A stretch of 31,753 nt of DNA, taken from Deferribacterales bacterium. Lineage in GTDB: Bacteria > Chrysiogenota > Deferribacteres > Deferribacterales > Geovibrionaceae. Each line of letters starts with the position of its first letter. Position 1 is the first letter of the stretch. Shown here one piece after another: positions 4,736 through 26,447 of the stretch. Below the pieces are notes generated by a model. The model was not told the DNA's origin. It saw only the letters and a list, made by a program, of their open reading frames with translations, and ran no database searches. The DNA lies in contig JBFWJG010000031.1 in the NCBI GenBank assembly GCA_050253335.1, forward strand, positions 1 through 31,753. Direction: 5' to 3'. The translations under genes were made by a program, and so were the position numbers.

Positions 4736-5995
4736 TTACCTGACAATGTCTTTCAGCTGCCTCCATTTCTTAACCGAAAGCCTCTTGTATCGGGGATCAT
4801 CATCGGTCATCCTTTTGTATTCCTCATCGTTTATGAAGCGGCCGTTTGTGACTTTAAAATCCTTGCCGTTGTGGAAGCTTTCGATCTCCAGCCCGTCTTT
4901 TTTAAGGTCGAAGATCCGCTCCTCTTCTGTTTCGCGCATGAGGCGTTTATTGTTTTTGTGGCAGCTTTCGCACATCACAGCCTCCCGCCGCACTGTGTGC
5001 GGGAAAAGCGCCTTGTAATTATTCGCCAGCATTTCGTTCTCTTTCCCCTTGGAACCCTCGCCGACAACATAGGTGAAGAAGGCGATGAATTGAGGCCGCA
5101 CGGGCGAGTATTTCCCCCGTGAGTTTACGCCGAGGGGAGGCGGGGTGTAGTCTTTGGTGTGGCTGCTTTTGGCGTATTCGTTATTGGGTGTTTTCACCCA
5201 GCGGAAGTAGTCGTCATACTCGGTGTTTTTAAAGCGGATCCAGAATGTGCCGTATTCCTGTGGCGCCCATGCGGAGTGGCAGGCGTAGCATTCCATCTTT
5301 TCCATATGCTCAGGAATTGAGTGCTCAATTGACGAACTTTTACTGACCTTGTGGCAGTCGGTGCAGGTTTTGGAGAAAGGCTTTCCTTCCGCCAGACTCT
5401 TCATGGAGTGGCATGCGGAGCACTGCATCCCTTTTTCATGGTGCACATCGGGGAGCATTTTTGCGTAGAGCTCGCCGTTGTGTTCAATGCCTCTGCCGTA
5501 GCGTTCGTGGTCGTCCCGCACACCGAGTCCAGTGTATTCGATTCCGGTGTAGTATCCGCTGTGGCATGTGGTGCATGCATCGGTTTTCGGTTTAACGGTC
5601 TCGTGGATGCTTTTGCCCTTGTGGCAGTCAGTGCAGGAGTTCACATGACAGGATGAGCAGTTCTTCGCGTAGAACGCGGGGTCTTTTTTGCCGTATGATT
5701 CATGGACAAATTTCTGCTCCGCCGTGCGTTTGTGCATGGGTGTTGTCAGCATCCCTTTGTAGTCCGAATGGCAGGTGAGACAGCCCTGCGCGCCCGTGCG
5801 GAACTCTGCCGCCTTTGCGTAGTGGGTGTCGTTTTTTATATGGCATGATGTGCACGAGGCATTCTTATGGGCGTCAGTAAGCTTAACCTTGTGGCAGTCC
5901 GTGCAGGTTTTGCCTTTGGTGTCTATCTGTCCGCCGTATGCCGCGCTAGTCAGCAAGAAGAGGCTTATGCACAGAATCGGAAAGAATTTTTTCAT
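4736..5995 (-). CDS. Decaheme cytochrome c, ExtN-like
   Basis: Signal peptide and 10 CXXCH motifs; directly downstream of and overlapping the ExtM-like gene. Confidence 0.85.
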   Translation of the reverse strand: MKKFFPILCISLFLLTSAAYGGQIDTKGKTCTDCHKVKLTDAHKNASCTSCHIKNDTHYAKAAEFRTGAQGCLTCHSDYKGMLTTPMHKRTAEQKFVHESYGKKDPAFYAKNCSSCHVNSCTDCHKGKSIHETVKPKTDACTTCHSGYYTGIEYTGLGVRDDHERYGRGIEHNGELYAKMLPDVHHEKGMQCSACHSMKSLAEGKPFSKTCTDCHKVSKSSSIEHSIPEHMEKMECYACHSAWAPQEYGTFWIRFKNTEYDDYFRWVKTPNNEYAKSSHTKDYTPPPLGVNSRGKYSPVRPQFIAFFTYVVGEGSKGKENEMLANNYKALFPHTVRREAVMCESCHKNNKRLMRETEEERIFDLKKDGLEIESFHNGKDFKVTNGRFINDEEYKRMTDDDPRYKRLSVKKWRQLKDIVR

Positions 5996-7802
5996 AGTCT
6001 ATCTTTTTCCCGTAGATTTTTTTATCGCCCTTGTCATGGCAGATGATACAGCGGTTGGCATCGAATATCCGGCTTATCTCCGCGGGGGTGAACACTCTGG
6101 AACGATCCCGCACCACATCAGAAGTAACGGAAACTTTACCGTTCTTCAGTGTATAGAGCGAATCCAGCGGCTTGTCACACTGGTCGCACATGTATGAGCT
6201 GTCTATATTCTTTTTGGTGATTGATACCAGCCCCTGCCCGAATCCGGCAAACATGAGGTCGGAATGGCACTTGCGGCAGGTTATGGCTTTTTTCCCTGTG
6301 TTATGTCCGTAGAAAGGGGCGAATTTGAACTTCTTTCCGCCCTTGTAGTTGAAAACGTGTTCTTTTATTATCACATTCTCTTTTTCGTCAAGCACGGTGA
6401 GGAAGGTCTGGCATCCGGGGGTGACGGGGGAGATTTTCCCGCGCTGGTTCAGCCCCATGGGGAAGGGGAAAAACGAGCGGAAGTCCTCCTTCTCGCTGAA
6501 GAGACCCTTGGTCTCCTCCATCTTCACCCAGTCCATCATGGTCTGGGATTTGTCGTAGGTGGTGTGGCAGCCGTAGCACTGGATTACGGTTTTGGAGTGA
6601 CAGGTGTAGCACTCCATGCGCTCATGCCCGTAGACTGCGTGGTCGGGGGTGTTGGTGACGGTTTTTATCTCAAGGCGCTTCCCTTCTCTCTTGGTGTAGA
6701 GGATGAATTTTCCGCCTTCCTTTTTTACGTTGGAGTACATGCGCCCCTTGGAGGTGAGCACCATCTCATCGCCGTAGTTCGCTTTTACTCTGTAATACTG
6801 CGACTCTCTCAGCGGAGAATCGCTTTCCTTGGTTATTTTCGCTGTTTTCGGCAGTGCTTCCGGTGTTCCGTGGCAGTCCTCGCAGGCGGTTTCAAGCTGT
6901 TCGAACATATTTTCATAAAGATAGCCGTCCCCCATCATGTCCCTTGAGGTGTGGCAGTCTATGCACTCCATGCCGAACTCCTTGTGAATGTCGGCCTGCA
7001 TGTGCTTTATGCTGCGTATGCCGTCCATGAGCTCAGGCCCGGGTATGCCGCCGTTTGTGGGAACTAGGGAGTTGTTGCCGTCGTACTCGCCTCTGTAGGA
7101 GAGGGCGATTCGCCCGCTTCGGTTATGGCAGGTGAGGCACACATCATCATTCGGCAGAGGGTTTATCACATGCTTTTCAGGGTAGGGCTTCTTTCCCAGA
7201 ATCGTTTTATCGCCCCCTGCGTAGGCTCCGTCAACGCTGTGGCTGAAATGGCAGGCGGCGCATCCTGAGGAGTGGTGGGCACGGTAGCCCACAAGCTTGT
7301 CAAACCCCACATGACAGCTTGAGCAGAACTTTCTGTACAGTTCGCCGGAAAGCTCCTCAAGCTCCGTCACTTTCGGCAGGGAGACCCTGTTCCCTTCCGC
7401 GTCAAAGCCTTCGGAACCGCCTGTGCTGTAGTGCTTTCCTTTGTAGTCGTCCCATGCCTGCTGGGCGTTTTTGATAATCCCAGTGTTGGTGTACATAAGG
7501 GTTGTGTTGACTCTGTCATGCTGATACTGGTGGCAGGTTCCGCACCCTTTGTCCCATACGGACGGATCGGACGGGTTCCGCCCTCCGAGCATGTCCTTAT
7601 GGGCAGCGTCTTTGTCCCTTGTGCCGGGGTTTCCCCCGTGGCATGAGGTACAGGCGAATTTATGGTTTTCGGAAGCATCTTCAATGCCTGCGTGACATTC
7701 GGCGGCAGTGCATGACTGCGCCTTTTCATCTGAGGCGGCAAAGGTGCCTGCGGAAAACATAAATACCGATAAGAAAAGGGTAAAAAATATCGCTCTAAAC
7801 AT
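5946..7802 (-). CDS. extM: Multiheme cytochrome c, ExtM-like (11 CXXCH + 1 CX4CH)
   Basis: Signal peptide, 11 CXXCH plus CTAAECH; synteny with rhodanese-porin-small protein as in the Geobacter ext cluster. Confidence 0.8.
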   Translation of the reverse strand: MFRAIFFTLFLSVFMFSAGTFAASDEKAQSCTAAECHAGIEDASENHKFACTSCHGGNPGTRDKDAAHKDMLGGRNPSDPSVWDKGCGTCHQYQHDRVNTTLMYTNTGIIKNAQQAWDDYKGKHYSTGGSEGFDAEGNRVSLPKVTELEELSGELYRKFCSSCHVGFDKLVGYRAHHSSGCAACHFSHSVDGAYAGGDKTILGKKPYPEKHVINPLPNDDVCLTCHNRSGRIALSYRGEYDGNNSLVPTNGGIPGPELMDGIRSIKHMQADIHKEFGMECIDCHTSRDMMGDGYLYENMFEQLETACEDCHGTPEALPKTAKITKESDSPLRESQYYRVKANYGDEMVLTSKGRMYSNVKKEGGKFILYTKREGKRLEIKTVTNTPDHAVYGHERMECYTCHSKTVIQCYGCHTTYDKSQTMMDWVKMEETKGLFSEKEDFRSFFPFPMGLNQRGKISPVTPGCQTFLTVLDEKENVIIKEHVFNYKGGKKFKFAPFYGHNTGKKAITCRKCHSDLMFAGFGQGLVSITKKNIDSSYMCDQCDKPLDSLYTLKNGKVSVTSDVVRDRSRVFTPAEISRIFDANRCIICHDKGDKKIYGKKIDYEKILSDSVHKPLLAD

Positions 7803-7844
7803 AAATCATCTTATACATTTCTTCTGCATTTTAAAAGATAAACG

Positions 7845-7880
7845 AAAAAAGGAAGGCAGGGCGGTCAACGCCGCCCCGCC
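7845..7880 (-). terminator. Intrinsic terminator between extJ and extM
   Basis: Minus strand GGCGGGGCGG-cgttga-CCGCCCTGCC-ttcc-TTTTTT. Confidence 0.65.
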
Positions 7881-7906
7881 AGGGTTTAACCTTAAAGAAC
7901 AGCCGG

Positions 7907-8125
7907 TTAGCAGCCCTGAAGCTGGAAACCGCCTTTGGGGGAACCGAGTGCTTCAACTTTTACATCGTCGCCTTTTTTGACATCGATGTCTTTGTCGAGT
8001 TTAATGGTGATTGTTGTTCCTTGTTTTTCAACAACTTTGCCTTTGGACTGTTTAACAGCCGCGAAAGCCGCTCCGGCTACAACAAGAGTAAGAGCAATTG
8101 CAATTACAGTAATTTTCTTTTTCAT
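7907..8125 (-). CDS. extJ: Small periplasmic protein, ExtJ-like
   Basis: Signal peptide (AFA), beta-rich small domain, C-terminal LQGC; located after the porin gene. Confidence 0.75.
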   Translation of the reverse strand: MKKKITVIAIALTLVVAGAAFAAVKQSKGKVVEKQGTTITIKLDKDIDVKKGDDVKVEALGSPKGGFQLQGC

Positions 8126-8143
8126 ATCAACTTCCTCCTCGGA

Positions 8144-9379
8144 TTAGAATCTTACCTGCAGGAACATTTCAAATGTGTCGAAGTCCTGCTTGTTGGTATC
8201 TGCTCCGACTTCTTTATCGAAATCGGTAATTGAATACTGGCCTACAATTTTGATGTCGTTGCCGGCGAGGTAGTAGTTAGCGCCGAAAGCGTAGAAATCA
8301 ACAGTGTTGTCAGTGTATCCGTTCAGTGTGGCATATTCGAAGCTGTCGTATCTGCCGAAGAACTGAAGTTTGCCGGGGCCGATGTTCATGGGGAGCATGT
8401 AGCCGGCTTTCACATAGTAGCCTTCTCTCTGGCCGTTTGCGCCGTTGAATGAGGAAGCGGCAACGTTGTCAGTGAGGGCTGAATCTGGGTCTGCGCCTTC
8501 ATCAAGATCATCGAGATCTATGTTGAGGTATGCGCCTGAGAGTGTGAAAGTACCTGCTGCTGAGGGCATTTCAGTGAAGAAATCCAGTGAGTAGGCGCTG
8601 TAGTCAACCGCGTCTGTCCTGTTTGTGACATCGCCGTAGGCTATGTCAGCTTCATACTGATATGCTCCGCCAACGGTGAGGATTTTTTTCTCGCCGAGGT
8701 ATGTGCCCTGATAGCCGTAGCCTTTTTCCTTGTCAAACATTGTGAAGTGCAGACGGCCGGTGTAGCGGAAGCCTGAATTGGGAACATAAGCTCCTTCATC
8801 GCCTTCTCCGCCGGATTCACGGCCTTCCATTACGTCAAGTCTGTACTGGATGTAGTCGTTGGCAAGGTTGCCCCATACAGCCACACCGTAGTCTCTGCTT
8901 GTTTTAAAGGGAGCAGAAACAAAGAGTGAGCGATCGAAGTTAAGGGGAGTGAAGCATCCTTCAAGGTTTTCCCTTGTGAGGTTGTGCTTGAACTTTCCGA
9001 GAGTGATGTTGAAAGCGTTGTTCTGAGCGTATCTTATCTGCGCGTCAAGAACATAGAACTTCTCGTCGTCTGTGAGCGAGTCTTTCACTCCGAGGGGGTT
9101 TACCGCTTTGTCATCAAGATATTCCGTCTGGAAGTAGAAGCTGAGCTTATCGTTGTAAGTGCCGATGAAGCCGATTCTGTTTCTTCTGAAGTTAAAGTCT
9201 GAAGTGTCGTCCTCGCCCTGCTCGCCTGAGCCGGTGTTTCTCATTGTGAGGCCGAACTGACCGTCATAGAAGAATTTAAGGTATTTGCCTTCCCCGAGAT
9301 CAATGGGTTTGAAGGCAAAAGCTGAACCTGCCATGAGCATAACAGCCATAAAAAATGTTAAAAACTTTATATTTCTCAT
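8144..9379 (-). CDS. extI: Outer-membrane porin, ExtI-like (OprO/OprP family)
   Basis: Signal peptide, FRRNR, GKFK and RDYG porin O/P-like motifs, C-terminal Phe (QVRF). Confidence 0.82.
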   Translation of the reverse strand: MRNIKFLTFFMAVMLMAGSAFAFKPIDLGEGKYLKFFYDGQFGLTMRNTGSGEQGEDDTSDFNFRRNRIGFIGTYNDKLSFYFQTEYLDDKAVNPLGVKDSLTDDEKFYVLDAQIRYAQNNAFNITLGKFKHNLTRENLEGCFTPLNFDRSLFVSAPFKTSRDYGVAVWGNLANDYIQYRLDVMEGRESGGEGDEGAYVPNSGFRYTGRLHFTMFDKEKGYGYQGTYLGEKKILTVGGAYQYEADIAYGDVTNRTDAVDYSAYSLDFFTEMPSAAGTFTLSGAYLNIDLDDLDEGADPDSALTDNVAASSFNGANGQREGYYVKAGYMLPMNIGPGKLQFFGRYDSFEYATLNGYTDNTVDFYAFGANYYLAGNDIKIVGQYSITDFDKEVGADTNKQDFDTFEMFLQVRF

Positions 9380-9402
9380 GTTTTATCTCCCTCTTGAATT
9401 AA

Positions 9403-10746
9403 TTAGCATCCGCTGCCTATGCCTTCTTCAAGGCCGCTGCCGCCGCCGTTTCCTGAAGGTTTGGTGTTGAAGTACTCAAGGTCTTCCTCGGCAATCTCAT
9501 TTCCTGTGCCAGTATAGGGGTGTTTAACTATTATGCGGGGATCTGTCGCATAGCTTCCTATAAGGTCTGAAAGACCTGCGGTGTTGGCAGGTATGCTGTA
9601 AAGAGTGGTGTTGTATTCGCCGAGAACAGCCTGGAATGCGATTTCTGCGGGGTCTGTGGTGTCGGCTGCGCCTGCTCTGTATGAGTACCACTGGTTTCTG
9701 GAACCGTCATAAAGAGCGACATCGATTCCGAGCACATCAGAGAACGCAACATAAAGCGCTGAAGCTGAAGAACCGCTCACGCAGTGAACAATGATCTTCT
9801 TGCCTGCAAAGATTGCCTCAACCTCGTCCCATGTGGAAACTGTCTGTGTCAGGCCGTCTGCTGCCCATGAGGCGTTCATGTTTGCGATGATTGTTGCTTT
9901 AAGCGTGTCGGCGTTGTTGTAGAGGCCTGCGGCGTTTGTCTGTCCTGCTCCGAGGAAGAAGGAGTTTTCAGTAGCCACGATTCTGCCGCTTGCTGCGGTT
10001 GCCTGAGAGAAAACAACAGCTTTGCCGCTTTTAACAGCGTCTATAACCTGTTTCATGGATGCCCTTTCAGACTGGTTCATTCTGGGAAGCGCTCTGACGC
10101 TGAATGTGCTGTCGTTGGGGTCGTATCCTGTGTATGTGGTGTCCACAAGTGTGGCGTCCTGTAATTTGAGGGAGGCTATGCCGCCGTCAAGAACCTTGAT
10201 TTTTGATTTATCGAATCCCCAGTAGATGAGCTCCCAGTAGAATCTCCATACGTCCCACTGTGAACCGCCGCTGCCAGCGAGAACAAGCACTGTGTCGTGG
10301 TTCATGCCGAGATCCTGAATAATAGCGTCAACCCTTTCTCCGGTGATGCTGTTGTTGGCTGTGGAGCCGTGCTGGATGAGTGTGGGATCAAGGGGGCCTT
10401 CAGCTCTGTTGTCGTTGCGGCTGAAGTTCTCGATAACCGCCTTGGAGACGGAACCGTAAATTCTGTCGCTTGCTGTTGTGAAGTCGGTCATTGTGTCGAA
10501 GATGATGACAGGGCAGCCTTCTTCGGTTTTGAAGCCGTTGTCGATCCACGCTGCGAGAGTCGCGTTGTCCACGAGACCGGACTCATTGGTGTAGTAGCCG
10601 TCCCACCAGGAATATACAGGGGGGTTGCTCTCATACGATGTGTCCACCGAGCCGCCGCTTCCGCAAGCCGCGGTGATGCTCAAAAGAGCTGTGAGTGTTG
10701 CGAGTTGAATGAAAGAATAAAATTTCCTTACACTGCAGAACTTCAT
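9403..10746 (-). CDS. extH: Rhodanese-like lipoprotein, ExtH-like
   Basis: Lipobox TAAC; tandem rhodanese signatures VLDGG and LYDGS; active loop HCVSGSSA; Gly-rich tail ending GC. Confidence 0.8.
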   Translation of the reverse strand: MKFCSVRKFYSFIQLATLTALLSITAACGSGGSVDTSYESNPPVYSWWDGYYTNESGLVDNATLAAWIDNGFKTEEGCPVIIFDTMTDFTTASDRIYGSVSKAVIENFSRNDNRAEGPLDPTLIQHGSTANNSITGERVDAIIQDLGMNHDTVLVLAGSGGSQWDVWRFYWELIYWGFDKSKIKVLDGGIASLKLQDATLVDTTYTGYDPNDSTFSVRALPRMNQSERASMKQVIDAVKSGKAVVFSQATAASGRIVATENSFFLGAGQTNAAGLYNNADTLKATIIANMNASWAADGLTQTVSTWDEVEAIFAGKKIIVHCVSGSSASALYVAFSDVLGIDVALYDGSRNQWYSYRAGAADTTDPAEIAFQAVLGEYNTTLYSIPANTAGLSDLIGSYATDPRIIVKHPYTGTGNEIAEEDLEYFNTKPSGNGGGSGLEEGIGSGC

Positions 10747-15932: not shown

Positions 15933-15949
15933 AAAATGGTGCCAGGGAC
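15933..15949 (-). repeat. Distal att site (displaced tRNA-Phe 3' fragment with a 1-nt deletion)
   Basis: aaaatggtgccagggac versus aaaatggtgcccagggac at the tRNA end. Confidence 0.88.
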
Positions 15950-16245
15950 ACTCTGTTATTGTAGCCATATAATATTTATAGCAAAGGCTATTCGATTTAA
16001 GACTTTTAGCGTATACCGTCAAATATACCGCCAGAATGATTGGGCTGGGTAAGTAAGCTAAGGTAAGCTGACTATATTTACCACACTTTTTATAAACTTA
16101 GAATATTTTTCCCCGTGTCCGTCAGCCACGGAAGTAAGTATATTTGGCAAATAGAATAAAATCTCCTCATGACTGCGGGGTGTGGTCATTTTGAACAACA
16201 ACATCAAACCTTATCCGCCCCCCTTATTCACTGAAAAGGCACTCT

Positions 16246-18990
16246 TCATTGTCCTTTCATTTCCAAAAACCCTTTTTCAAAAGCCTCAGGAAAGACAAAT
16301 TTCTTCTCTGCTTTTTTACCATCGGAATTAAAAGAGATAGTAATTCTATTGCCATACAGTTCAGTAACCCTGCCATTGCCAAATTTGATGTGGGATACAT
16401 TTGTGCCAACTTTTACCTTCGCTATGTCAATCTTGATTGCTTGATTTTTATCTTTAGGCTCTTTTTCCTGCACTTGATTATTTACCGTACTATGTTTTTG
16501 ATAATCATCGTTGCTTATGACAGTATCAAAAAGTCCTACATTTTCATCTTTGTGTTTATTTATCCCTGTGTATGTCAAGCTTGCGTCTTCGTATCGTTTG
16601 AATTTATAAATTGCGTCATTCATCAATGCTGAGTTGAACACACCGAGGGAGATCAAAAGCTCAAAGTCCACAAGGTCAAGCCCAGTGACTTTTCTGAAAA
16701 GCTCAGGCTCCAACTGCCTTATAACATCTTTCAGGCAATATTCCCTGTAATCACTCAGATACATAAAGACGGGAATTCTCGTAGCAAATTTTATCAGCTT
16801 TTCCTGAATCTGCTTACGTTTGGACTTATATTCTTTTTCCTCCTCCGTCAGAGCCTGCTTTTCTTTTAGAGAAAGCTCTTTACCTTCTTTCTTAGTTTTT
16901 TTAACAGCTTCTGATTTATTGATAATAGTTTCAATATCCGCATTCAAGCTCCTGAATCCCTCAATTTTCATAAGAGCTTTCATAGCTTCATCATTTGCAA
17001 TCAGGCGTGACAGAGTGTCATTATCAACATTAACGAGCAGCGCACTTTCCCAACGTCTGGCAAGCAGAGTTGCTGACGTTCCTGACATTGCAATCTGGAG
17101 AATTTCTCCTGCGTCAACCTCTCTCATGCTGCTGCCATCATAGGCAAGTACAGGAAGAAAACTGATAAACTCCTCAACTTTTTTCTCTGGATTCCCCTCT
17201 TTGATGTTTAATCGGCAACTATAATCAGATATTTGCCTCAAAGCACGATCTAGGGCAAAATCAAAAACATAGCAAACATGCTTCAAAATTTCTTTTTTCC
17301 CATCTTCTGAATCAATCACCCACGGGCTTTGAACACGGAAAGCAGACTGAAAATATGTTTCAGGGCTGGAAAGATTACGAAGCATAAGAATACCGCTCCA
17401 CGGCTTAACAGTTACGCCTGTGGTGAGTTTGCCGCAGGAAAGTGTTATTGTTTTAGTTTTAAGCGGATCACCCATAGCACGGCGGACAGGCTCTAATGCG
17501 TTTACACCGATTCCTGCCCTAGCTCCCGCACTCACAATAACTTTATAATCATGATAAAAGGAGTTTTGCTTTTCATCTAAGAGATTCTTCATCGCATAAC
17601 ATGAAGCAACATCAGGCAAAAACCATAATGTATGCGTCAAAATACCAAGTAGTCTGGCATCAGAATATGGTAAAGGCGGCTTCTTTGCCCCCAGCTTAAG
17701 ATCGTCTACAGTGGTTGCTAAATATGAGCCACGTATAAGATCCAGCCACTTCTGAACATAGTCCTTGTATTTGAATATAGCCATCTCTTCTCTGCCCGTG
17801 GCGGAAAAGAATTCGTTAAGGTCAAATTCATTAAATTCGCCTTGCATAGCGATATTTCTGATACTGTCAGGCAATTTATAAGTCAACATAACCATCTGAG
17901 GCAAAGAAGCATACGGGTTATCGGGTTTCTCGCCCCAGTTCTGCTTTGCCTGCTGTTCATCGCTATATGTCCAGTTGTAGATCTGGTCTTCTATAAATTC
18001 ACCGGAGTTCAAGGCTCGAAAGGGTGTTCCCGAAAGAAATAGGTAATATGATGTGGTTATAGGCAGGAATGTTTCATTGTAAGCGTTGTCTGCTTCTTCC
18101 TTTTTATATTTTTCTATATCAAGAGCATAATAAGATTCATCATCCTCTTCAAACAGCTTCTTTACGCTGTCACGCCATGCGCCGAAGTGATATTCATCAA
18201 AAATCACCAAATCCCAGTTGGTGGTATGTACCCATTCATTTTTTACTTTTATTCCGCCGGAATCATTTCTGCCTAAATAATCCTGAAAAGAGCCAAAGCA
18301 AACGATAGGCTTAGAAATATCTGCGTCTTCATACCTCATTCCGTTATTAGGGCTTATGAACTGCCAGCCCTCAAAATCCATATGAGTAAGTAGGTCTTCC
18401 CGCCATGAGCTTTCAACTGCGGGCTTAAATGTCAAAACTAACACTTTAGTGAAGTTCATTCGGCGGGCAAGCTGATACGAGGCAAAGGTTTTGCCAAACC
18501 GCATTTTTGCATTCCAAAGGAATTTGGGAATACTTTGAGGATATTCTTTATTCATTTTTTCAAAGTAACTGATGGTTCTGTTTACCGCCTCTTCCTGCTC
18601 AGGACGCATTGGGAAGGAGCATGTACGGTTTTCTATGTTTGCTTCGTTGTTTTTAACCGCCAGATAAGCAGCCTGAACATCAGTAACACTGCAACGAAAC
18701 CACTCGCCCTCAATTCGGATAATGCCTTTTCTTACCAGCACACGGTGAATATCGTGATCAGTAAATGTGGAGCCGTCAGGACGAATGGCAGATTCTGAAA
18801 AAACTATTCTATATTGCTTTTCACCGGGCTTAATAGTTGCATCATACTGTTGTGCTACACGTTCGGAAGCATCTTTTTCAGTATAGCCGACTTTCATCAA
18901 ACCTTTACGGTCAGGGTGAAACTTATCCTCATAGGCGTAAATTGTCGGATTAGCTAAAGGACGAACCCGAAAAAAACGCTCTTCAGCCAT
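16246..18990 (-). CDS. GIY-YIG/T5orf172-like nuclease fused to SF2 helicase (restriction subunit-like)
   Basis: N-terminal IYAY..KVGYT..R..EWF; helicase motifs [24 protein letters not shown]-terminal [11 protein letters not shown]udor/SH3-like tail. Confidence 0.85.
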
Positions 18991-20488
18991 TATCAAGCTC
19001 CATCGGCTTTATCATAGATTCGATAAACTCAATTTCCTCTGCGGTTAATCTGTATTTTTCGTAAAGCTCTTTGTCTGTCCACGGTTTTGAAAAGTCCTGC
19101 ATAGGGACAAAAACAAAACAGCCTTTCGTGATATGCTGTGATACGGCAACTTGAGCTATCAAAAAACGAACAAACTTTGTACGTAAATAACTGATAAGAT
19201 TCTTTGCATCTGGCTCATCATCAAAAATACCTGCAACTAAGTAAGTTTCTGAACATATTGCTTTCGGTGGGAGTGTTTCAATGACAGACATTACCTTACG
19301 CATACCGTTTTTATCTGGTTGACCTGCATGATCAAACGAAATATAAGAAATGATAACTTTCCATTTATCAATCAAATCTACACCAGTAGTAATTAATGTT
19401 GAACTGTAGCGACCTAATCCTTTGTTATACCTCAGTTCAAGATCGCCATCTTGTATTGGTTCAACATTTGTAGCTAATCCAAAAGGTTTTCTACTTGATA
19501 CAACTGTAGACATTAATATCTCATTATAAGATAGAACTTTTTTTATTATGTCAGATGCCTCAGAATATCGAATAAAAGTCTCAAATTCATCTAAGTTACG
19601 TTTAGCATTGAACACTTTGCCTTTGACAATATTAGTAACTTCACATTCACCTTTATTATCTCTATCCCATAAAAAATAACATATTCCACCAGCTATATCT
19701 ACTCCGGGGAAGCAATCTTTAGAATCTGTATAATCAACAATCTTTCTGATACGTTTATCTTTAAGCATACTCAGCCTAAAATCATCTAGTCCTTTACCGC
19801 CAGCAAACCAACGGGATGGAACGATCATCATCAGATAACGTGGCATCAATTTCTTAGCTTGTTCAACAAAAAGATTATATATAGGTTTGGCACTTGCTTT
19901 GTTCCCCCCATCACTCAACTGATACGGCGGATTCCCGATTATAACATCAAACTTCATATTGAATATCTCCTCAGGATTGTTTGTATGTATGAATTCATAA
20001 GCATGTGTTTCTAACTCCTCTCCTCTGTCATATTCGCTTTGAGAAGCTCCGCAAAATTCACATTTTCCATTCTTCCATGAATGCGAAATACGATTAAAAC
20101 GTATATTCCCTTGTTCATTAATGAACTTTGAAACGGAATACTTTCTGTTTGGATATTTTGAACAATATAAACTACGGCGTGAAAGCAGAGCGGTGAGTTC
20201 GGTGATGGGGATACCAAACAATTGATTATGGTATATATAATCAAGCCTTTCCTGCAAGTCAGGGAAATCCTTCTCCAACCCTTTTATCAAACGTTTAGCA
20301 ATCTCTCGAAGAAAAACACCGGATTTGCAAGCAGGATCAAGAAAGGTTGCTTCCTTATCGCTCCATAAGCTTTCAGGCAGCATATCAAGCATGTTGTTAA
20401 CAAGCTCAGGCGGAGTGAAAACTTCATCGTTTGATAAATTTGCCAAGCAATTCAAAACATCAGGATTATAGCCGACTTCATTTATCAT
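18983..20488 (-). CDS. DNA amino-methyltransferase (Eco57I/TaqI-like) with target recognition domain
   Basis: Motif X DEVFTP, variant motif I DPACKSG, catalytic GNPPY, PSRW; variable C-terminal region. Confidence 0.88.
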
Positions 20489-21137
20489 ACTGCTGTACCT
20501 TTCTGTAATCAGTTAGGGGATATTCTTTTATTGGTTTGGGGATATATGTTTTAGTCTCCTCGTCATACTCCCAATCATTAAGGAACACTTCTATATTACC
20601 CTCATGCCCTTCCAACATCTGATTAAGATAAAAATCACGGCGTTGCATAAGCGAACCTGAAACAAGAGACCATTCAGAAAAAGTAATCGGTGAACCATCT
20701 AATGCTTTCAGCGTCAGAGCATCGCCACAGATGATATTATGCTTCAAGATATATTTAACAGCCTCTCTGCATTCATCACTTGCAGTTCCTTTGCAGACAG
20801 CAGTGTATTCAATATCAAAGATACTAAATAATCTCTCACAGCATTCTTCTATATTATCAGGCAGAAGATCGATACCGTATAAGCTTGTTACGGCAACAAC
20901 AGCAAATTTCTCATAATCTGACGCATTCTTGCCATAACGCTGCCTGACAACAGCCAGCTTTCGCCGCAGAATCTCAGCTAAAAAATTCCCATTACCGCAG
21001 GCAGGCTCTAAAAAACGGCTGTCAATACGCTCCGTCTCCTGCTTCACCAAATCAAGCATGGCATTTACCTCACGCTCCGAAGTAAACACCTCCCCATGAT
21101 CCGCCACCCGCTGCTTGGACTTAACCTGTTTTGTCAT
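20478..21137 (-). CDS. Short SAM-binding methyltransferase-like subunit lacking NPPY
   Basis: [17 protein letters not shown] and CGDAL motifs present; no (N/D/S)PP(Y/F) in 219 aa. Confidence 0.82.
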
Positions 21138-21254
21138 GAATAATGCACCAAATAAGTAAAATATTTACAAATAAGATACCAGTGTTGTGTTTTCTTGTCT
21201 AACGGTTTTGACTTCTCATAAAAATAACGATAGTTATTTTAAATATGGGAGTGA

Positions 21255-21476
21255 GCTTACTTAGTTGTAAACGGTAAATCTGCTATCGACTGGGTTGTTG
21301 AACGCCAATGCGTCAAAACCGATAAAGCCAGCGGCATAGTAAACGATGCGAACGACTGGGCAGTTGAAACCATGAACAACCCGAAATACCCCCTTGAACT
21401 GCTTCTGCGGGTTATAACCGTCAGTTTGGAGACAATGAAGATAGTCCGGTCTCTTCCCAAGCTTGTTATTGAATAA
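21255..21476 (+). pseudogene. C-terminal remnant of a Type ISP (LlaGI/LlaBIII-like) R-M enzyme
   Basis: Manual translation AYLVVNGKSAIDWVVERQCVKTDKASGIVNDANDWAVETMNNPKYPLELLLRVITVSLETMKIVRSLPKLVIE*, preceded by in-frame TGA; not in the ORF track. Confidence 0.8.
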
Positions 21477-21490
21477 AGATGAAATAACAC

Positions 21491-21537
21491 TTGAAAAGCG
21501 TGTGACAATTGCCATACTTTTCTGTATGAGCATACAG
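21491..21537 (+). promoter_or_regulatory. TA1 promoter and operator
   Basis: TTGAAA-16 bp-CATACT followed by the inverted repeat CTGTATG-ag-CATACAG (21522-21537). Confidence 0.55.
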
Positions 21538-21553
21538 CTAAGGAGTTTTTATC

Positions 21554-21787
21554 ATGGCGCAAATGCAGACAATAAGCACACGCTTTACAAGTGATACTAT
21601 AGCAAGGCTTGAGGAAATCGCAGGCAATCAGAACCGCTCACGCTCTGATATTATTCAGGAGGCGGTCGAAGGTTATCTGAACTCTCTTGCATGGCTTGAG
21701 GCTAAGGTGCAGAAAGCAGAAGCGGGCTCTTTCGTTTCTCACGATGAAGTAAGGGGAAGGCTCCGCAAGCTCGGTGTCAAGTGCTGA
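21554..21787 (+). CDS. Ribbon-helix-helix antitoxin (CopG/RelB-like)
   Basis: ISTRF...RSRSDIIQEAV RHH pattern; AAGGAG RBS; overlaps the toxin gene. Confidence 0.85.
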   Translation: MAQMQTISTRFTSDTIARLEEIAGNQNRSRSDIIQEAVEGYLNSLAWLEAKVQKAEAGSFVSHDEVRGRLRKLGVKC

Positions 21788-22062
21788 TCGAGTGGTCAGA
21801 ATATGCCTATGATGATTTAGCCGAAATATTCCGCTATTTCAGAGAGACCGAAAAAGAAGAACTCGGATACGAGATAGTAGGCGAACTTTTCACCTCAACT
21901 GAGATATTGGCTAAATTCCCTTTGTCCGGCAGGCTTGGCAGGGTGTCAGAAACAAGGGAACTGGTGAATCAGGTGTTCCCCTATGTTGTTGTTTACAGGA
22001 TAGTTTCTGTAGATACTATAAAAATTCTGGCAGTGGTGCATACTTCAAGATTATTTCCCTGA
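21781..22062 (+). CDS. RelE/ParE family toxin
   Basis: IEWSEYAYDDL...FPLSGR...RELV...YVVVYRI...ILAVVH pattern. Confidence 0.88.
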   Translation: MLIEWSEYAYDDLAEIFRYFRETEKEELGYEIVGELFTSTEILAKFPLSGRLGRVSETRELVNQVFPYVVVYRIVSVDTIKILAVVHTSRLFP

Positions 22063-22083
22063 ACCTTTCAAAGCAGAAATTAA

Positions 22084-22115
22084 TTGCTCACTTTCTCTGT
22101 AATACATATAATACA
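22084..22115 (+). promoter_or_regulatory. TA2 promoter and operator
   Basis: TTGCTC-17 bp-TATAAT, overlapped by tandem TGTAATACA/TATAATACA repeats. Confidence 0.6.
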
Positions 22116-22131
22116 AGCATGAGGTGAGAAC

Positions 22132-22350
22132 ATGCTTACTGTCAGATTGCCGGAAGAGATTGAAAACAGGCTTACAGCCCTTGCGGAGCAGACAGGCAGA
22201 CCGAAAAGCTATTATGTCCGTGAGGCTCTGGAGAACTATCTGGAAGACCTTGAAGATCTCTACACCGCCGAAACCGTTTACCGCAGGGTGCTTGAGGGCA
22301 AGGAAGAAATATCCGCTCTGGAAGAGGTTGAAAAGCGTCTTGGCTTATAA
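22132..22350 (+). CDS. relB: RelB-like RHH antitoxin
   Basis: LTVRLP...TGRPKSYYVREAL...LEDLEDLY pattern; GAGGTG RBS. Confidence 0.85.
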   Translation: MLTVRLPEEIENRLTALAEQTGRPKSYYVREALENYLEDLEDLYTAETVYRRVLEGKEEISALEEVEKRLGL

Positions 22351-22603
22351 AATCAGGCTTACCAAAACGGCGGAAAAGGAGCTTGCCAAACTGGATAAGC
22401 CGTCTGCTGTGAGAATCGTTAAATTTCTTTGTGAACGCCTTTCTGTTGCCGATAACCCGAAGAGCTTAGGCAAACAGCTTTCCGGATCATTGGGGCAGTT
22501 CTGGCGGTTCAGGGTAGGGGACTACCGAATTATCTGCGATATTCAGGATAATGAGCTTGTTATTCTTGCTCTCCGCATTGCTCACAGGAAGGAAGTTTAT
22601 TAG
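22340..22603 (+). CDS. relE: RelE/StbE family mRNA interferase toxin
   Basis: TTG start overlapping the antitoxin end; AEKELAKLD...NPKSLGKQLSG...WRFRVGDYRIIC...IAHRKEVY. Confidence 0.9.
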   Translation: MAYKIRLTKTAEKELAKLDKPSAVRIVKFLCERLSVADNPKSLGKQLSGSLGQFWRFRVGDYRIICDIQDNELVILALRIAHRKEVY

Positions 22604-23511
22604 TTGAGTGCTTTCAGCCTTTTGTTATTATGGTAGTTTTCACTTATAGCTTTTTGCAGTTCAGGGCTATTAATAATTTTTCTGTACCTTTCAGGATTTC
22701 TTGCCACAAGGTATTCTGCAATTTTTGAAAATCGTAATGCGTTTCTATCCGTCATTTTGTGATCATACTCAGGTCTGTAGGTATAGAGTTTATTTCCGCC
22801 TGTTATCATGCGTTTGATAATTTTGTCATATTTTGGATTGAAGCTGTAATTTTCTTTGAGAGTTACTATCAAAGAGCTGATATTTTCACGCAATTCAGAC
22901 AAGCTAAGATTATCTGTATTCCTCACATTGTAACGAGCAAGAAAATCTTTTTTAAACTCAATTTCAAACCTTTTCCAATCTTTAGGAATATCTGGAAGCA
23001 GTTTATTTGTTTTATTTTTCTGCTCAATGTATTTATCATAAATTCTGACTACAAATGACTTGGATTTAAAATAAACTGTTTCTATTGTTTTGTCTTTCTC
23101 TACTAACTCCGATCTTACCGTAGCTTTTGAGGGCTGCTTTCTGATAATGCCTTTTACGAGTTTAAAATTTTCATTTATCAAATCAACACAAACATCTACA
23201 CGATTGATACTAATTTCTAATATTGATTCAATCTTGACCATATTTTTGATGATCGATAAGCCGTATTTATTGCAAAGAACAGAATGAACTTGAATTATTG
23301 CCTGTTCATATTCTGAACCACTGACTTTTGTCACCTCAGTCCTAAAATATCCGCAATCCAATATTGTTTTATATCCTCTGGTTTCCTGTTCAAAACCTAA
23401 TTCACGCTTTTCACAGTAAGCGGCGCATGATTCGATAAAACCCCGCTCAACCAAGCAGCTTAAATGCAGCGTGTCTATTCTGTATCTGGAAATATTTTTC
23501 TTATTTCTCAT
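22600..23511 (-). CDS. Rolling-circle replication initiator / relaxase (Rep_trans, MOBT-like)
   Basis: IDTL, INRVDVCVD, ETVYF, VRIYDK and WKRFEIEFK motifs typical of Rep_trans proteins. Confidence 0.75.
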   Translation of the reverse strand: MRNKKNISRYRIDTLHLSCLVERGFIESCAAYCEKRELGFEQETRGYKTILDCGYFRTEVTKVSGSEYEQAIIQVHSVLCNKYGLSIIKNMVKIESILEISINRVDVCVDLINENFKLVKGIIRKQPSKATVRSELVEKDKTIETVYFKSKSFVVRIYDKYIEQKNKTNKLLPDIPKDWKRFEIEFKKDFLARYNVRNTDNLSLSELRENISSLIVTLKENYSFNPKYDKIIKRMITGGNKLYTYRPEYDHKMTDRNALRFSKIAEYLVARNPERYRKIINSPELQKAISENYHNNKRLKALN

Positions 23512-23673
23512 AACACATTGTCACTTAACAGCAATAAGGCTATTTTTGTTCATTCTATGAACCCATGTTATATAGGCATAGAACAGGATAGAGAGCGCAT
23601 TCAAAAAGATGTATTTTAATGGCTTTTTCAAATTACCCATGACAAACAGCCTTAGTCTGAATCTTCAATACGC

Positions 23674-23889
23674 TTAATCAGCCTGTGCAGACAGGTTAAG
23701 AGAATCAGAATACGGATTAAAGGGATTCAGCGGGCATTTTGTGATCGTGCATTTCTGAATGCCTTCAGGATAACCGCCTTCACATTCATAGCATTTGGCA
23801 ATTATCGCTTCGTTTCTGGTGAGGCGTTCACCGTTGAGGTGCTTATTAAGCAGGGCTTTTCCCCTGAAGCGTTTTCCTTCCACTTTCAT
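23674..23889 (-). CDS. Small Cys4 (putative Zn-binding) protein
   Basis: AIIAKCYEC-X10-C-X4-CPL; starts just after the alpA stop. Confidence 0.7.
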   Translation of the reverse strand: MKVEGKRFRGKALLNKHLNGERLTRNEAIIAKCYECEGGYPEGIQKCTITKCPLNPFNPYSDSLNLSAQAD

Positions 23890-23891
23890 GG

Positions 23892-24083
23892 CTACAGCCC
23901 CCTGCTTTCAGTAACTTTGGATTCAATCCACTGCATAACATCGGCTTCAAGCCATGCAACCGCACGCATACCAAGCTTGATCGGTTTGGGAAAATCGCCT
24001 TCTTTGATTTTTGAATAGATTGAGCTTCTTTTCAGCCCTGTGACTTTTTCGACTTCGTTTCTTCTAAGGAGTTTTTTAGTCAT
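23892..24083 (-). CDS. alpA: AlpA family excisionase/regulator
   Basis: LLRRNEV..TGLKRSSIY...FPKPIKLG.RAVAW motif. Confidence 0.92.
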   Translation of the reverse strand: MTKKLLRRNEVEKVTGLKRSSIYSKIKEGDFPKPIKLGMRAVAWLEADVMQWIESKVTESRGL

Positions 24084-24198
24084 TTTGAAACCTCACTGGT
24101 ATTTTTCAGTAAGGTAAAACAAGAGAGCTAAGTAATAAATGAGAGTCATTTTAGAAAAGTTTTGCAACACATAATATCTTGGTATATTTAAAAAATAT

Positions 24199-24957
24199 TT
24201 AATCTTTGGCTCTTAAGCCTTCAGGTATGACATATATATCTTTAAATTTACCATAAGCTGTTCTAAATGTATTTGGTGTAGCAATCTGACCGTTTTTCCT
24301 GAAAATATATTCAGCAATTTGGCAGCCAGAACGAACATTAGCGTTTGTTTTTTTGTGTGGAGATTTTTCACTATGATAAGGCGGAATACCGAATAACACT
24401 TTTAAAGCCCATACCATTAAGCCTCTTGCATAACCAACATACCCATTTCCTATCAAATTTTTGTGATTTTTTCTGATTTTTTCGGGTTCTTGCATTATTC
24501 CTGAGAAGCTTTCAAAAACTAGAGTAATTAAAGGTTCTGGTAATGAAGGTAAAAGCTTAGTGATGTCTCCCCCTTTTTTACGAATGAACTTTGCTAACGA
24601 AAGTTTAATAATTTCAAGTGCCAAAGAGTTTGTTTCGGCAAGTTTAATCATTTGTAATATTTCATTATTATAACCAGTACGTCTGAATCCGGCATTGTGT
24701 TTGCCTGAATATATTTCAAGTTTTCTTAAATATAAATCAGAGTTTTCTTCTAACGAACGAAGGGGGTACGCTTCAGTAATAACTTCATAAAGTGTTTGAA
24801 AATGTAGTTCTAATTCTTTTTCCGTAAACTTGGGAATATCTCCTCTTTCAACTCTGCTAGGTAAATGAATAAGGTCAATATTGCTATTGGCTAGCAAAAC
24901 CCAAAAGTTCTCTATTCTTCGCTGTTTATATTCTTCAGGTATATCTTTTTCCCCCAT
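24199..24957 (-). CDS. Hypothetical protein in the int-alpA slot
   Basis: 252-aa AT-rich ORF overlapping the integrase end, with GAGGTG RBS. Confidence 0.65.
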   Translation of the reverse strand: MGEKDIPEEYKQRRIENFWVLLANSNIDLIHLPSRVERGDIPKFTEKELELHFQTLYEVITEAYPLRSLEENSDLYLRKLEIYSGKHNAGFRRTGYNNEILQMIKLAETNSLALEIIKLSLAKFIRKKGGDITKLLPSLPEPLITLVFESFSGIMQEPEKIRKNHKNLIGNGYVGYARGLMVWALKVLFGIPPYHSEKSPHKKTNANVRSGCQIAEYIFRKNGQIATPNTFRTAYGKFKDIYVIPEGLRAKD

Positions 24958-26131
24958 TTTTCACCTCATCTAAAAAATCCGCCCACCATTGCATCATTTT
25001 TGTTCTTTCTTCCATATATTCGGCATGGTTATAAGCTGCTTTAACCTTATTGCTTTCAGAATGAGCAAGCTGTGTTTCAATATAAAGACTGTTGAATCCG
25101 TTTTCGTGCAGGAGAGTTGACGCAACGCCTCTGAAGCCATGAGCGGTCATTTCCTCTTTGGTAAAGCCCATGCGCCTTAATGCTGCGTTCAGTGTGTTAT
25201 CGCTCATCGGTCTGTCTTTTGAACGAAGGGAAGGGAAAACATATTTCCAGCGTCCTGTTAGGGGCATAATATCTTTAAAAATTTGTACAGCCTGCTTTGA
25301 CAATGGAATCATATGAGGTTTTTTCATTTTCATTTTACCAGCCGGAATTTTCCATACAGCGTTTTCAAGGTCAATCTCAGACCATTCAGCCTGTCTTAAC
25401 TCACCAGGTCTTAAAAATACATATGGAGCAAGTTTCAGAGCATATCTTGTGACAATTTCCCCCTCATAGTCTTCTATTGCCAGAAGCAAGCCTTTGAGTT
25501 TTGATGGTTCTGTTATGCAAGCCATATGTTTGTTGACTTTAGGGGTAAGAGCTTTGGTTAATCCGGAAGTAGGGTTGTTTTCACATCGGTTAGTCCGGAT
25601 ACCATATAAAAATATCTCTCCGCATATTCCATTGATTCTATGTGCAATGTCGATAGCTCCACGATGCTGAATCCGCTCAAGAAGTGTCAGAATATCTTTT
25701 GCAGTGATATTTTTAATCGGTTTGCTGCCTACATAGGGGAAAATATCTTTTTCAAGAAACCGCCATTTCTTTTCAGCGTGTTTTTCAGACCACTTGGGCT
25801 TAAACTTTTCATACCATTCACAGGCAACCGAATAAAAGTTGTTTGTGGAGTCCTCATATATTAATTGCTTTTTTGTTTTCTTAACTTCCATAGGATCAAT
25901 GTTATCGGATAAAAGCTTTCTGGCGTTGTCTCTCTTAATTCTTGCCTCTTTCAATGATGTTTCAGGATAAACACCGATTGCCAGTGTTTTACGTTTACCG
26001 CCGAATCTGTAATCCATACGGAAATATTTCCCTGAATTGCTTACTAAGAGATACATTCCTTTTTCATCTGTTATTTTGATTTGCTTTCCTGAGAATCTGG
26101 AATTTTTGATGACGGTATCTGTTAATGCCAT
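24935..26131 (-). CDS. P4-family tyrosine integrase
   Basis: Arm-binding N-terminus (GMYLLV, LAIGVYP); catalytic LRPGE, KMK, HGFR, LAH and AAYN. Confidence 0.95.
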   Translation of the reverse strand: MALTDTVIKNSRFSGKQIKITDEKGMYLLVSNSGKYFRMDYRFGGKRKTLAIGVYPETSLKEARIKRDNARKLLSDNIDPMEVKKTKKQLIYEDSTNNFYSVACEWYEKFKPKWSEKHAEKKWRFLEKDIFPYVGSKPIKNITAKDILTLLERIQHRGAIDIAHRINGICGEIFLYGIRTNRCENNPTSGLTKALTPKVNKHMACITEPSKLKGLLLAIEDYEGEIVTRYALKLAPYVFLRPGELRQAEWSEIDLENAVWKIPAGKMKMKKPHMIPLSKQAVQIFKDIMPLTGRWKYVFPSLRSKDRPMSDNTLNAALRRMGFTKEEMTAHGFRGVASTLLHENGFNSLYIETQLAHSESNKVKAAYNHAEYMEERTKMMQWWADFLDEVKNGGKRYT

Positions 26132-26306
26132 GACGGTATTTCCTGTCTCGCTTTTTATTTATACCGTCAAATGTAAGTGATTGATAATAAGTGGATTGAA
26201 TTATGATTGACGGTATGTGCCCATGACAAATTATAATATACCGTCGTTACTACCGTCAAGTTTATGTGGCTGCCTATGGATTTTTTTGGATTTTATTGGA
26301 CGGTAT
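26110..26306. repeat. Cluster of TACCGTC integrase arm-type sites
   Basis: 7 copies in both orientations (26110, 26131, 26161, 26208, 26238, 26251, 26299) plus 2 tandem copies near the distal att (16012-16035). Confidence 0.75.
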
Positions 26307-26325
26307 TTTGTCATAAACTATTGAA

Positions 26326-26358
26326 TAAAAAAGGCTTCGCAGATTTCTCTGGAAGCCT
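26326..26358 (-). terminator. Element-supplied terminator downstream of tRNA-Phe
   Basis: Minus strand AGGCTTCCAGA-gaaa-TCTGCGAAGCCT-TTTTT. Confidence 0.7.
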
Positions 26359-26371
26359 GTAGATTTCAAAA

Positions 26372-26447
26372 TGGTGCCCAGGGACGGAATCGAACCATCG
26401 ACACGTGGATTTTCAGTCCACTGCTCTACCGACTGAGCTACCTGGGC
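26372..26447 (-). tRNA. tRNA-Phe (GAA)
   Basis: GCCCAGGTAGCTCAGTCGGTAGAGCAGTGGACTGAAAATCCACGTGTCGATGGTTCGATTCCGTCCCTGGGCACCA: 76-nt cloverleaf with encoded CCA. Confidence 0.98.

Follow-up and report, generated by a model that had tools for sequence, protein, structure and literature searches.

The 31,753-nt stretch of Deferribacterales DNA analyzed here (the window) carries three minus-strand genes, labeled A, B and C in this report, which by sequence are a new member of the known DrdVI 'split methylase' family of restriction-modification (R-M) systems. As a locus the trio is ordinary; the new part is a putative nested start within gene B. Based on sequence patterns and structural models, we consider it likely that B is translated twice and that its shorter product, B', joins A to form the protective adenine methyltransferase of the system. 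The three genes and the elements of the internal start are as follows (positions are those of the window).

20478-21137, minus strand: gene A, 219 aa, M1.DrdVI homolog; S-adenosylmethionine (SAM)-binding half of a gamma-class adenine methyltransferase
18983-20488, minus strand: gene B, 501 aa, M2.DrdVI homolog; gamma-methyltransferase fold with altered SAM half, catalytic half and target-recognition domain (TRD)
16246-18996, minus strand: gene C, 916 aa, DrdVI homolog; T5orf172/GIY-YIG nuclease domain and SF2 helicase-like motor
19967-19972, minus strand: Shine-Dalgarno (SD)-like GAGGAG, codons E173-E174 of B, 9 nt before the internal ATG
19955-19957, minus strand: internal ATG of B, codon M178
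18983-19957, minus strand: nested product B', predicted 324 aa, from motif IV (GNPPY) onward including the TRD

An earlier note on this DNA had described three overlapping minus-strand genes. A check of the open reading frames found them intact at the positions given there, with overlaps of 11 nt (A/B) and 14 nt (B/C) by reading-frame coordinates, and all the motifs quoted in that note are present in the translations. M178 of B lies directly before the catalytic strand ([10 protein letters not shown]) and is invariant in 107 homologs; these 107 paired homologs are kin, so counts over them overstate independence. We then considered 190 distinct homologs with an intact N-half. In 183 of them ATG stands seven residues ahead of the G of GNPPY; the others have GTG (four), TTG (two) or ATA (one) there, which makes a start-type codon in 189/190. 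Copies on viral contigs (n = 55, possibly overlapping with the 190) have ATG in 53 cases and GTG in two. All six members with Leu or Val at the start position use TTG or GTG, codons that account for 7-25% of Leu/Val codons gene-wide (five genes measured).

The region upstream of this codon is also biased. Pairing with the 16S rRNA tail averages -8.2 kcal/mol compared with -4.1 kcal/mol for synonymous shuffles (107 genes), and it is stronger than the shuffles in 94% of the 107 genes. When the SD excess over the synonymous null was scanned across 482 positions in every second sequence, it peaked at B177-179 (-3.7; mean 0.03, sd 0.52). The E173 codon is GAG in 92/104 sequences versus about 40% gene-wide, the range for other conserved Glu columns being 23-73%. 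In the M2 subunit of DrdVI the internal ATG is likewise present, and its SD is -6.4. Taken as sequence evidence, these patterns predict that gene B yields a nested 324-aa B' from an internal start. No account of such a start was found in the literature searched, though it may be known from REBASE, from patents, from the supplements of bioRxiv preprints or from subscription journals, most of which lay outside the search. B' may also be catalogued already, as the PADLOC model PDLC03375 (348 columns) matches B178-496. The SD excess rises a second time, less strongly (about -2), at B positions 25-33 (20392-20440, minus strand, B codons 22-33), where about 70% of homologs have a start codon at M33 of B; this is possibly another internal start or a pause.

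Natural fusions and splits were compiled for the same region. Among 122 long A homologs, 76 are fusions of the A half to B with the junction immediately ahead of motif IV (A::B' fusions), while the rest comprise joins to whole B (12), joins after NPPY (5), joins to other partial forms of B (8) and unrelated fusions (21). In 28 of the 76 A::B' fusions the former start residue is not M, L or V; therefore, Met at 178 does not appear to be needed for structure. A tree of the A part (74 fused and 137 stand-alone sequences) requires 35 changes between the two labels, at least 11 of them forced by strong branches; it was built from few columns by a quick method, and its protein-only rows were taken without DNA context. 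B' is also found as a gene in its own right. Locus L192 encodes B' separately (343 aa), along with an A-like protein and a helicase that terminates in the B N-half, and L337 and L338 have the same arrangement, their helicases bearing the B N-half only. A and B' are two overlapping genes in L186 (no C match within 5 kb), two genes in L318, and occur together without C nearby in L316. In L239 an A-like::B' fusion precedes the helicase.

A and B178-501 were also modeled as a complex. The score was 0.88, compared with 0.00 for the best of three controls; the mark set for this score is reached by 116 of 157 solved complexes and by 2 of 215 mismatched pairs. At least 90% of contacts are the same from run to run, with a partner pLDDT of 84 or higher. 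In the predicted complex B180-184 lies against A40-44, thereby rebuilding the central methyltransferase sheet. Because the two halves of a known fold may score well simply by resembling it, the model speaks for fit and not for binding in the cell. The earlier note had proposed a split methyltransferase made of the 219-aa and 501-aa proteins. Complementary halves are borne out by these data, but the likely partner of A is the nested 324-aa B' rather than the 501-aa protein.

Protein A contains motifs X, I, II and III, whereas NPPY and a TRD are absent. Residues kept across the 107 aligned homologs include G15-E-V, E44-P-A-C-G-x-G50, Y87-G-x-D/E (acidic in 107/107) and G138; an NPPY-like motif occurs in 0/107, so the description of the 219-aa protein as a SAM-binding chain lacking the catalytic motif holds family-wide. 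A is paralogous to the N-half of B (hhalign probability 97). Its model (pLDDT 87) corresponds to half of a methyltransferase domain, as judged from the match to part of the MmeI methyltransferase domain (Z 10.5, rmsd 3.0, 139 aligned); a Foldseek search with the model gave nothing at E 0.001 or better. Directly upstream of A, three loci (L033, L044 and L052) carry a further A paralog, which is more distant (208-210 aa, 36-42%).

Protein B, modeled alone (pLDDT 88), has a whole CamA-like gamma-class fold, with structural matches to CamA (Z 22.5, rmsd 5.5, 406 aligned) and LlaGI (Z 19.4, rmsd 5.0, 374 aligned). The Eco57I family (PF07669) matches residues 88-260, and the altered SAM half spans residues 1-177. 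Its distinctive segments are listed below.

20318-20338, minus strand: motif I variant DPACKSG, with Lys in place of Gly
19985-20164, minus strand: Cys/His insertion with C109, H136, C143, C146 and H168
19109-19633, minus strand: variable TRD, about residues 286-460

Active enzymes usually have Gly at the motif I position that is occupied by Lys in B, and the glycine loop and the ribose-binding acid of gamma-class enzymes both have roles in the use of SAM. K55 and G57 of B are present in 107/107 homologs, K[ST]G is kept even in distant helicase fusions, and the motif II position has no acid in any of the 107 (A 97, G 4, P 3, S 3). Since full-length B has Lys in its glycine loop and lacks the ribose-binding acid, it is likely unable to use SAM. 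The N-half is at the same time the most conserved part of B (pairwise identity 0.74). Because the motif oddities of A and B are kept across the 107 aligned homologs, they are family features and not decay. The account of the 501-aa protein in the earlier note (an irregular motif I, no motif II acid, GNPPY and a TRD) is thus borne out.

That note had also pointed to the Cys/His insertion (YCSK...HSW...CEFC) as a potential Zn ligand. The insertion is strongly conserved (C109 in 106/107; H136, C143 and C146 in 107/107), and a Zn site is possible. Its CxxC is present in 174/174 separate B proteins and in 0/16 helicase fusions (nine of the 16 are partial views of fusions, identified from open frames). 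On these alignments the insertion is specific to the three-gene form; since it occurs only in separate B and never in the fusions, it may help B dock on C.

The TRD is the variable part of B. Residues 286-460 share 30% identity with the same-genus copy, compared with 86%, 68% and 95% for flanking segments, and family-wide pairwise identity of B311-405 is 0.33. This pattern is as expected if the recognition domain has been exchanged between copies. In the same-genus genome the trio (locus L194, compared with 16241-21208) is sited elsewhere; its gene C is 96.6% identical in DNA to the one here, and the TRD segment is unalignable.

Protein C matches T5orf172 (residues 19-111) and ResIII, which agrees with the earlier assignment of an N-terminal T5orf172/GIY-YIG-like nuclease followed by an SF2 helicase. 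Nuclease and motor residues are conserved in its homologs, the Walker A/B residues being invariant in 61/61. The C tail (16246-16560, minus strand) has a weak PcrA/UvrD Tudor-like match and no counterpart in homologs of ~830-870 aa.

The three genes travel together. Among 80 A-anchored genome loci, B is next to A in 78/78 with enough flank and C is present in 64/65. Among 92 B-anchored loci, A is found in 68/69 with at least 900 bp upstream and C in 64/67 with at least 1500 bp downstream; the sole B-anchored locus without A retains an A remnant. The co-occurrence check proposed in the earlier note therefore comes out in favor of the small gene as a conserved neighbor of B. A homologs number at least 8000 at 90% clustering, and family matches were found in 15/250 and 21/251 sampled genomes of two large groups. 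Gaps of 0.4-2 kb are often seen between B and C (e.g. L005, L014, L026, L068 and L119), and locus L192 has a GmrSD gene inside the cluster. The operon seems to accept passenger genes.

The earlier note held that the layout fits no known system cleanly, unless the trio were to match one already characterized. It does match one. The pDrdVI trio is 44% (A), 49% (B) and 56% (C) identical to the genes described here, and pDrdVI carries the same three genes in the same order with the same motif pattern. The layout is not new. The M1, M2 and nuclease-translocase genes are homologous along their length and form one cluster. M1 has a GxG motif I without NPPY (LEPACGSG in M1.DrdVI), M2 has NPPY and a TRD (LDPCTKSG and NPPY in M2.DrdVI), and a GIY-YIG nuclease is fused to the translocase, as described for DrdVI (PMC4996451). 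The PADLOC search suggested in that note was less telling: PADLOC and NCBIfam scans of the trio matched only generic R-M models, and the match to DrdVI came through the comparison with pDrdVI. Searches of PDB sequences returned no close solved relative. The trio differs from DrdVI in the TRD and in the Tudor-like tail of C. Given the different TRD, its recognition site is probably other than that of DrdVI.

Cloned in E. coli, M1-2.DrdVI produces N6-methyladenine (m6A) at GCAGCC and is listed as type IIG (PMC6430315). M1-M2.MaeIV, cloned as a pair in E. coli, gives m6A at GCACY. The accessible parts of the DrdVI literature assign methylation motifs only, without subunit make-up or an internal start, and the accessible parts of PMC9881135, PMC12707154 and bioRxiv 2023.12.13.571470 do not cover the family. 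A personal communication on split methyltransferases of two or three subunits, cited in PMC4335053, indicates that specialists may know more than is printed. The 'Type IIIB' system of Cutibacterium acnes was considered as a possible family and rejected: in the available excerpt it is described as a Mod/Res system, with no link to the trio.

More distant relatives are Lla7005III and Lcr1196I, M + R-M pairs of lactococcal plasmids reported to methylate (m6A) GGRAG or CTCCA; Lla7005III is reported to give moderate protection against five phages (both PMC12418389). They resemble the trio in having an A homolog (37%), a C-like part (31%), a B-like part (29%) and the internal ATG, but differ in that C and B form one chain and the Cys/His insertion is absent. 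The phage-assay primers for Lla7005III span the A homolog and the C-B fusion on pLLUC7005B. The methylation-clone primers listed in the supplement (PMC12418389) span only an upstream hypothetical gene and the A homolog (L256:1158-2714), not the NPPY gene, which is probably a slip in the table.

Other R-M classes fit less well. The Type ISP enzymes LlaGI and LlaBIII share with the fused relatives the order nuclease, SF2 motor, gamma methyltransferase and TRD. However, they are single chains with an Mrr nuclease and an active methyltransferase, whereas here there are three genes, the nuclease at the N-terminus of C is T5orf172/MUG113 (GIY-YIG type), and a gene of its own encodes the SAM half. 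In nearly all of the loci examined, an A-like gene stays separate even in the fused relatives. Type ISP enzymes cleave when translocating complexes collide; the motor motifs of C are intact, and by analogy the system may work like a Type ISP enzyme, yet it falls outside Type ISP. A strict Type IIG enzyme combines nuclease and methyltransferase in a single chain and has no ATP motor; the trio has separate genes and an SF2 motor, although PADLOC model PDLC03626, labeled IIG, covers C and B. In a Type III beta-class Mod the catalytic motif precedes the SAM motif; in B, motif I precedes NPPY and the TRD is C-terminal. The island that carries the trio has no Type I HsdS gene, the variable TRD being inside B.

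Two further comparisons concern the split itself. M.AquI and M.EcoHK31I resemble the proposed A-B' enzyme in building one catalytic domain from two polypeptides, but they are C5-cytosine enzymes split elsewhere, and the accessible part of PMC3404938 describes for them no half shared by an active and a dead partner. B. subtilis DnmA-YeeB-YeeC (MmeI-like) is similar in clustering an m6A methyltransferase, an SF2 helicase and a T5orf172 nuclease (PMC9973331); unlike the trio, it has a whole self-sufficient methyltransferase, separate helicase and nuclease genes and no half-methyltransferase.

In the mechanism that we propose, A would supply the SAM pocket (motifs X and I-III) and B' the NPPY catalytic strand together with the TRD. 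To judge from the relatives, the target of the pair would be a short asymmetric site, methylated on one strand. Full-length B, with the same TRD behind its altered SAM half, would read the site without methylating it and load C onto unmethylated DNA; C would then cleave in an ATP-driven manner, by analogy with Type ISP enzymes. As B and B' carry the same TRD, one coding sequence would fix the specificity of both marking and cutting. Of all the steps, reading by full-length B has been tested least; we regard it as likely because, in fusions and splits alike, the altered N-half goes with the helicase. We incline somewhat towards a more general view, in which a shared half-domain builds both a methyltransferase and a restriction reader, the cut points moving between relatives (separate B', A::B', C::B, C::B N-half) while the logic is kept.

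A number of observations weigh against this mechanism. Raw SD strength at the internal start (-7.7) is not unique, position 271 reaching -7.4. There is no clear codon bias at Pro172 (CCG in 52/102) and no local mRNA folding signal at the start (62/107). Some members have little or no SD (-0.9 in L191, -3.0 in L003). In the phylum of a Saprospiraceae genome (G069) the start codon is kept in 19/19 loci, and the SD is -1.0 or weaker in 8 of the 19. Many Bacteroidota initiate translation without an SD. A single homolog, at locus L193:2846-6883, has ATA in place of the internal start codon, and an A-like gene is still present upstream of it. A search for RNA runs returned one run, with a small share (0.07). 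Most A::B' fusions are single-contig proteins without context that could be dead deletion products, and the fusion search, ranked by A similarity, favors long A parts. The predicted complex may owe its score to resemblance to intact methyltransferases, and full-length B alone folds as a complete domain in the model. Finally, no single-gene dropouts are reported in the family literature found.

The foremost alternative is that A and full-length B form the methyltransferase, A displacing or working beside the B N-half, with the Met being structural and the SD an interdomain pause site. It has in its favor that full-length B is the only annotated product, that the M1 + M2 clones contain whole B, and that 12 of the 122 long homologs are read-throughs of A into whole B. 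However, members with Leu or Val at the start position always use TTG or GTG, the Met is often lost in fusions, and stand-alone B' genes exist. Moreover, strand 49-54 of B in the full-length model occupies the predicted place of A40-44. We consider this alternative unlikely.

Still less probable is a self-sufficient B with an unusual SAM pocket, A being a SAM-sensing regulator or a restriction assembly factor. A SAM-sensing regulatory subunit was the second option of the earlier note. The complete CamA-like fold and the high conservation of the B N-half would suit such an enzyme, as would the partial activity with one subunit of split methyltransferases mentioned in the personal communication in PMC4335053, where it is unclear which family is meant. 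On the other hand, the motif I Lys is invariant and the motif II acid is absent. In L192, L337 and L338 it is the N-half, and not the catalytic half, that is on the helicase, and A and B' occur without C nearby in L186 and L316.

It is very improbable that the methyltransferase works in a system that is mainly a non- or weakly restricting relic like B. subtilis DnmA-YeeB-YeeC: although no phage protection was seen for that cluster (PMC9973331) and a decayed DrdVI-like locus has been reported in Bibersteinia, the nuclease and motor residues of C are conserved, C stands beside B in 64/67 loci, Lla7005III is reported to protect, and the TRD differs from that of the same-genus copy between near-identical flanks. 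We agree with the earlier note that the trio is an ATP-dependent defense system.

If translation of B proceeds as proposed, this would be an undescribed way of coupling restriction and modification specificity within a very widespread restriction family, one for which the literature found assigns only methylation motifs, common as the family is. The nested start would explain both the retention of a half-enzyme gene and the degenerate look of B, and an unannotated protein would be predicted in thousands of genomes. The model further points to a small methyltransferase encoded by two genes (A + B'), the recognition domain of which could be swapped.

The trio resides in a mobile island whose main features are listed below.

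15933-26447: mobile island with the trio, flanked by tRNA-Phe and a short copy of the tRNA 3' end
26372-26447: tRNA-Phe, one island edge
24935-26131: integrase
22600-23511: Rep_trans gene
21554-22603: two RHH/ParE pairs

The copy of the tRNA-Phe end at 15933 is 11 nt long. GC content of the island is 0.389 versus 0.487 and 0.510 in the flanks, and a same-genus genome (G029) resembles the left flank only as far as 15943; no empty tRNA site was found in the relatives' stretches examined. An island gene at 24199-24957 (minus strand, 252 aa) overlaps the integrase end and matched nothing in Pfam, PADLOC or NCBIfam. A 27-nt inverted repeat (21485-21596; 81% complementary, arms 58 nt apart), possibly an operator or an origin, lies between the first toxin-antitoxin pair and the restriction operon. 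Outside the island, a host cluster at 4736-10746 (minus strand) codes for a porin, multiheme c-type cytochromes and a protein with a rhodanese domain, next to sensor kinases.

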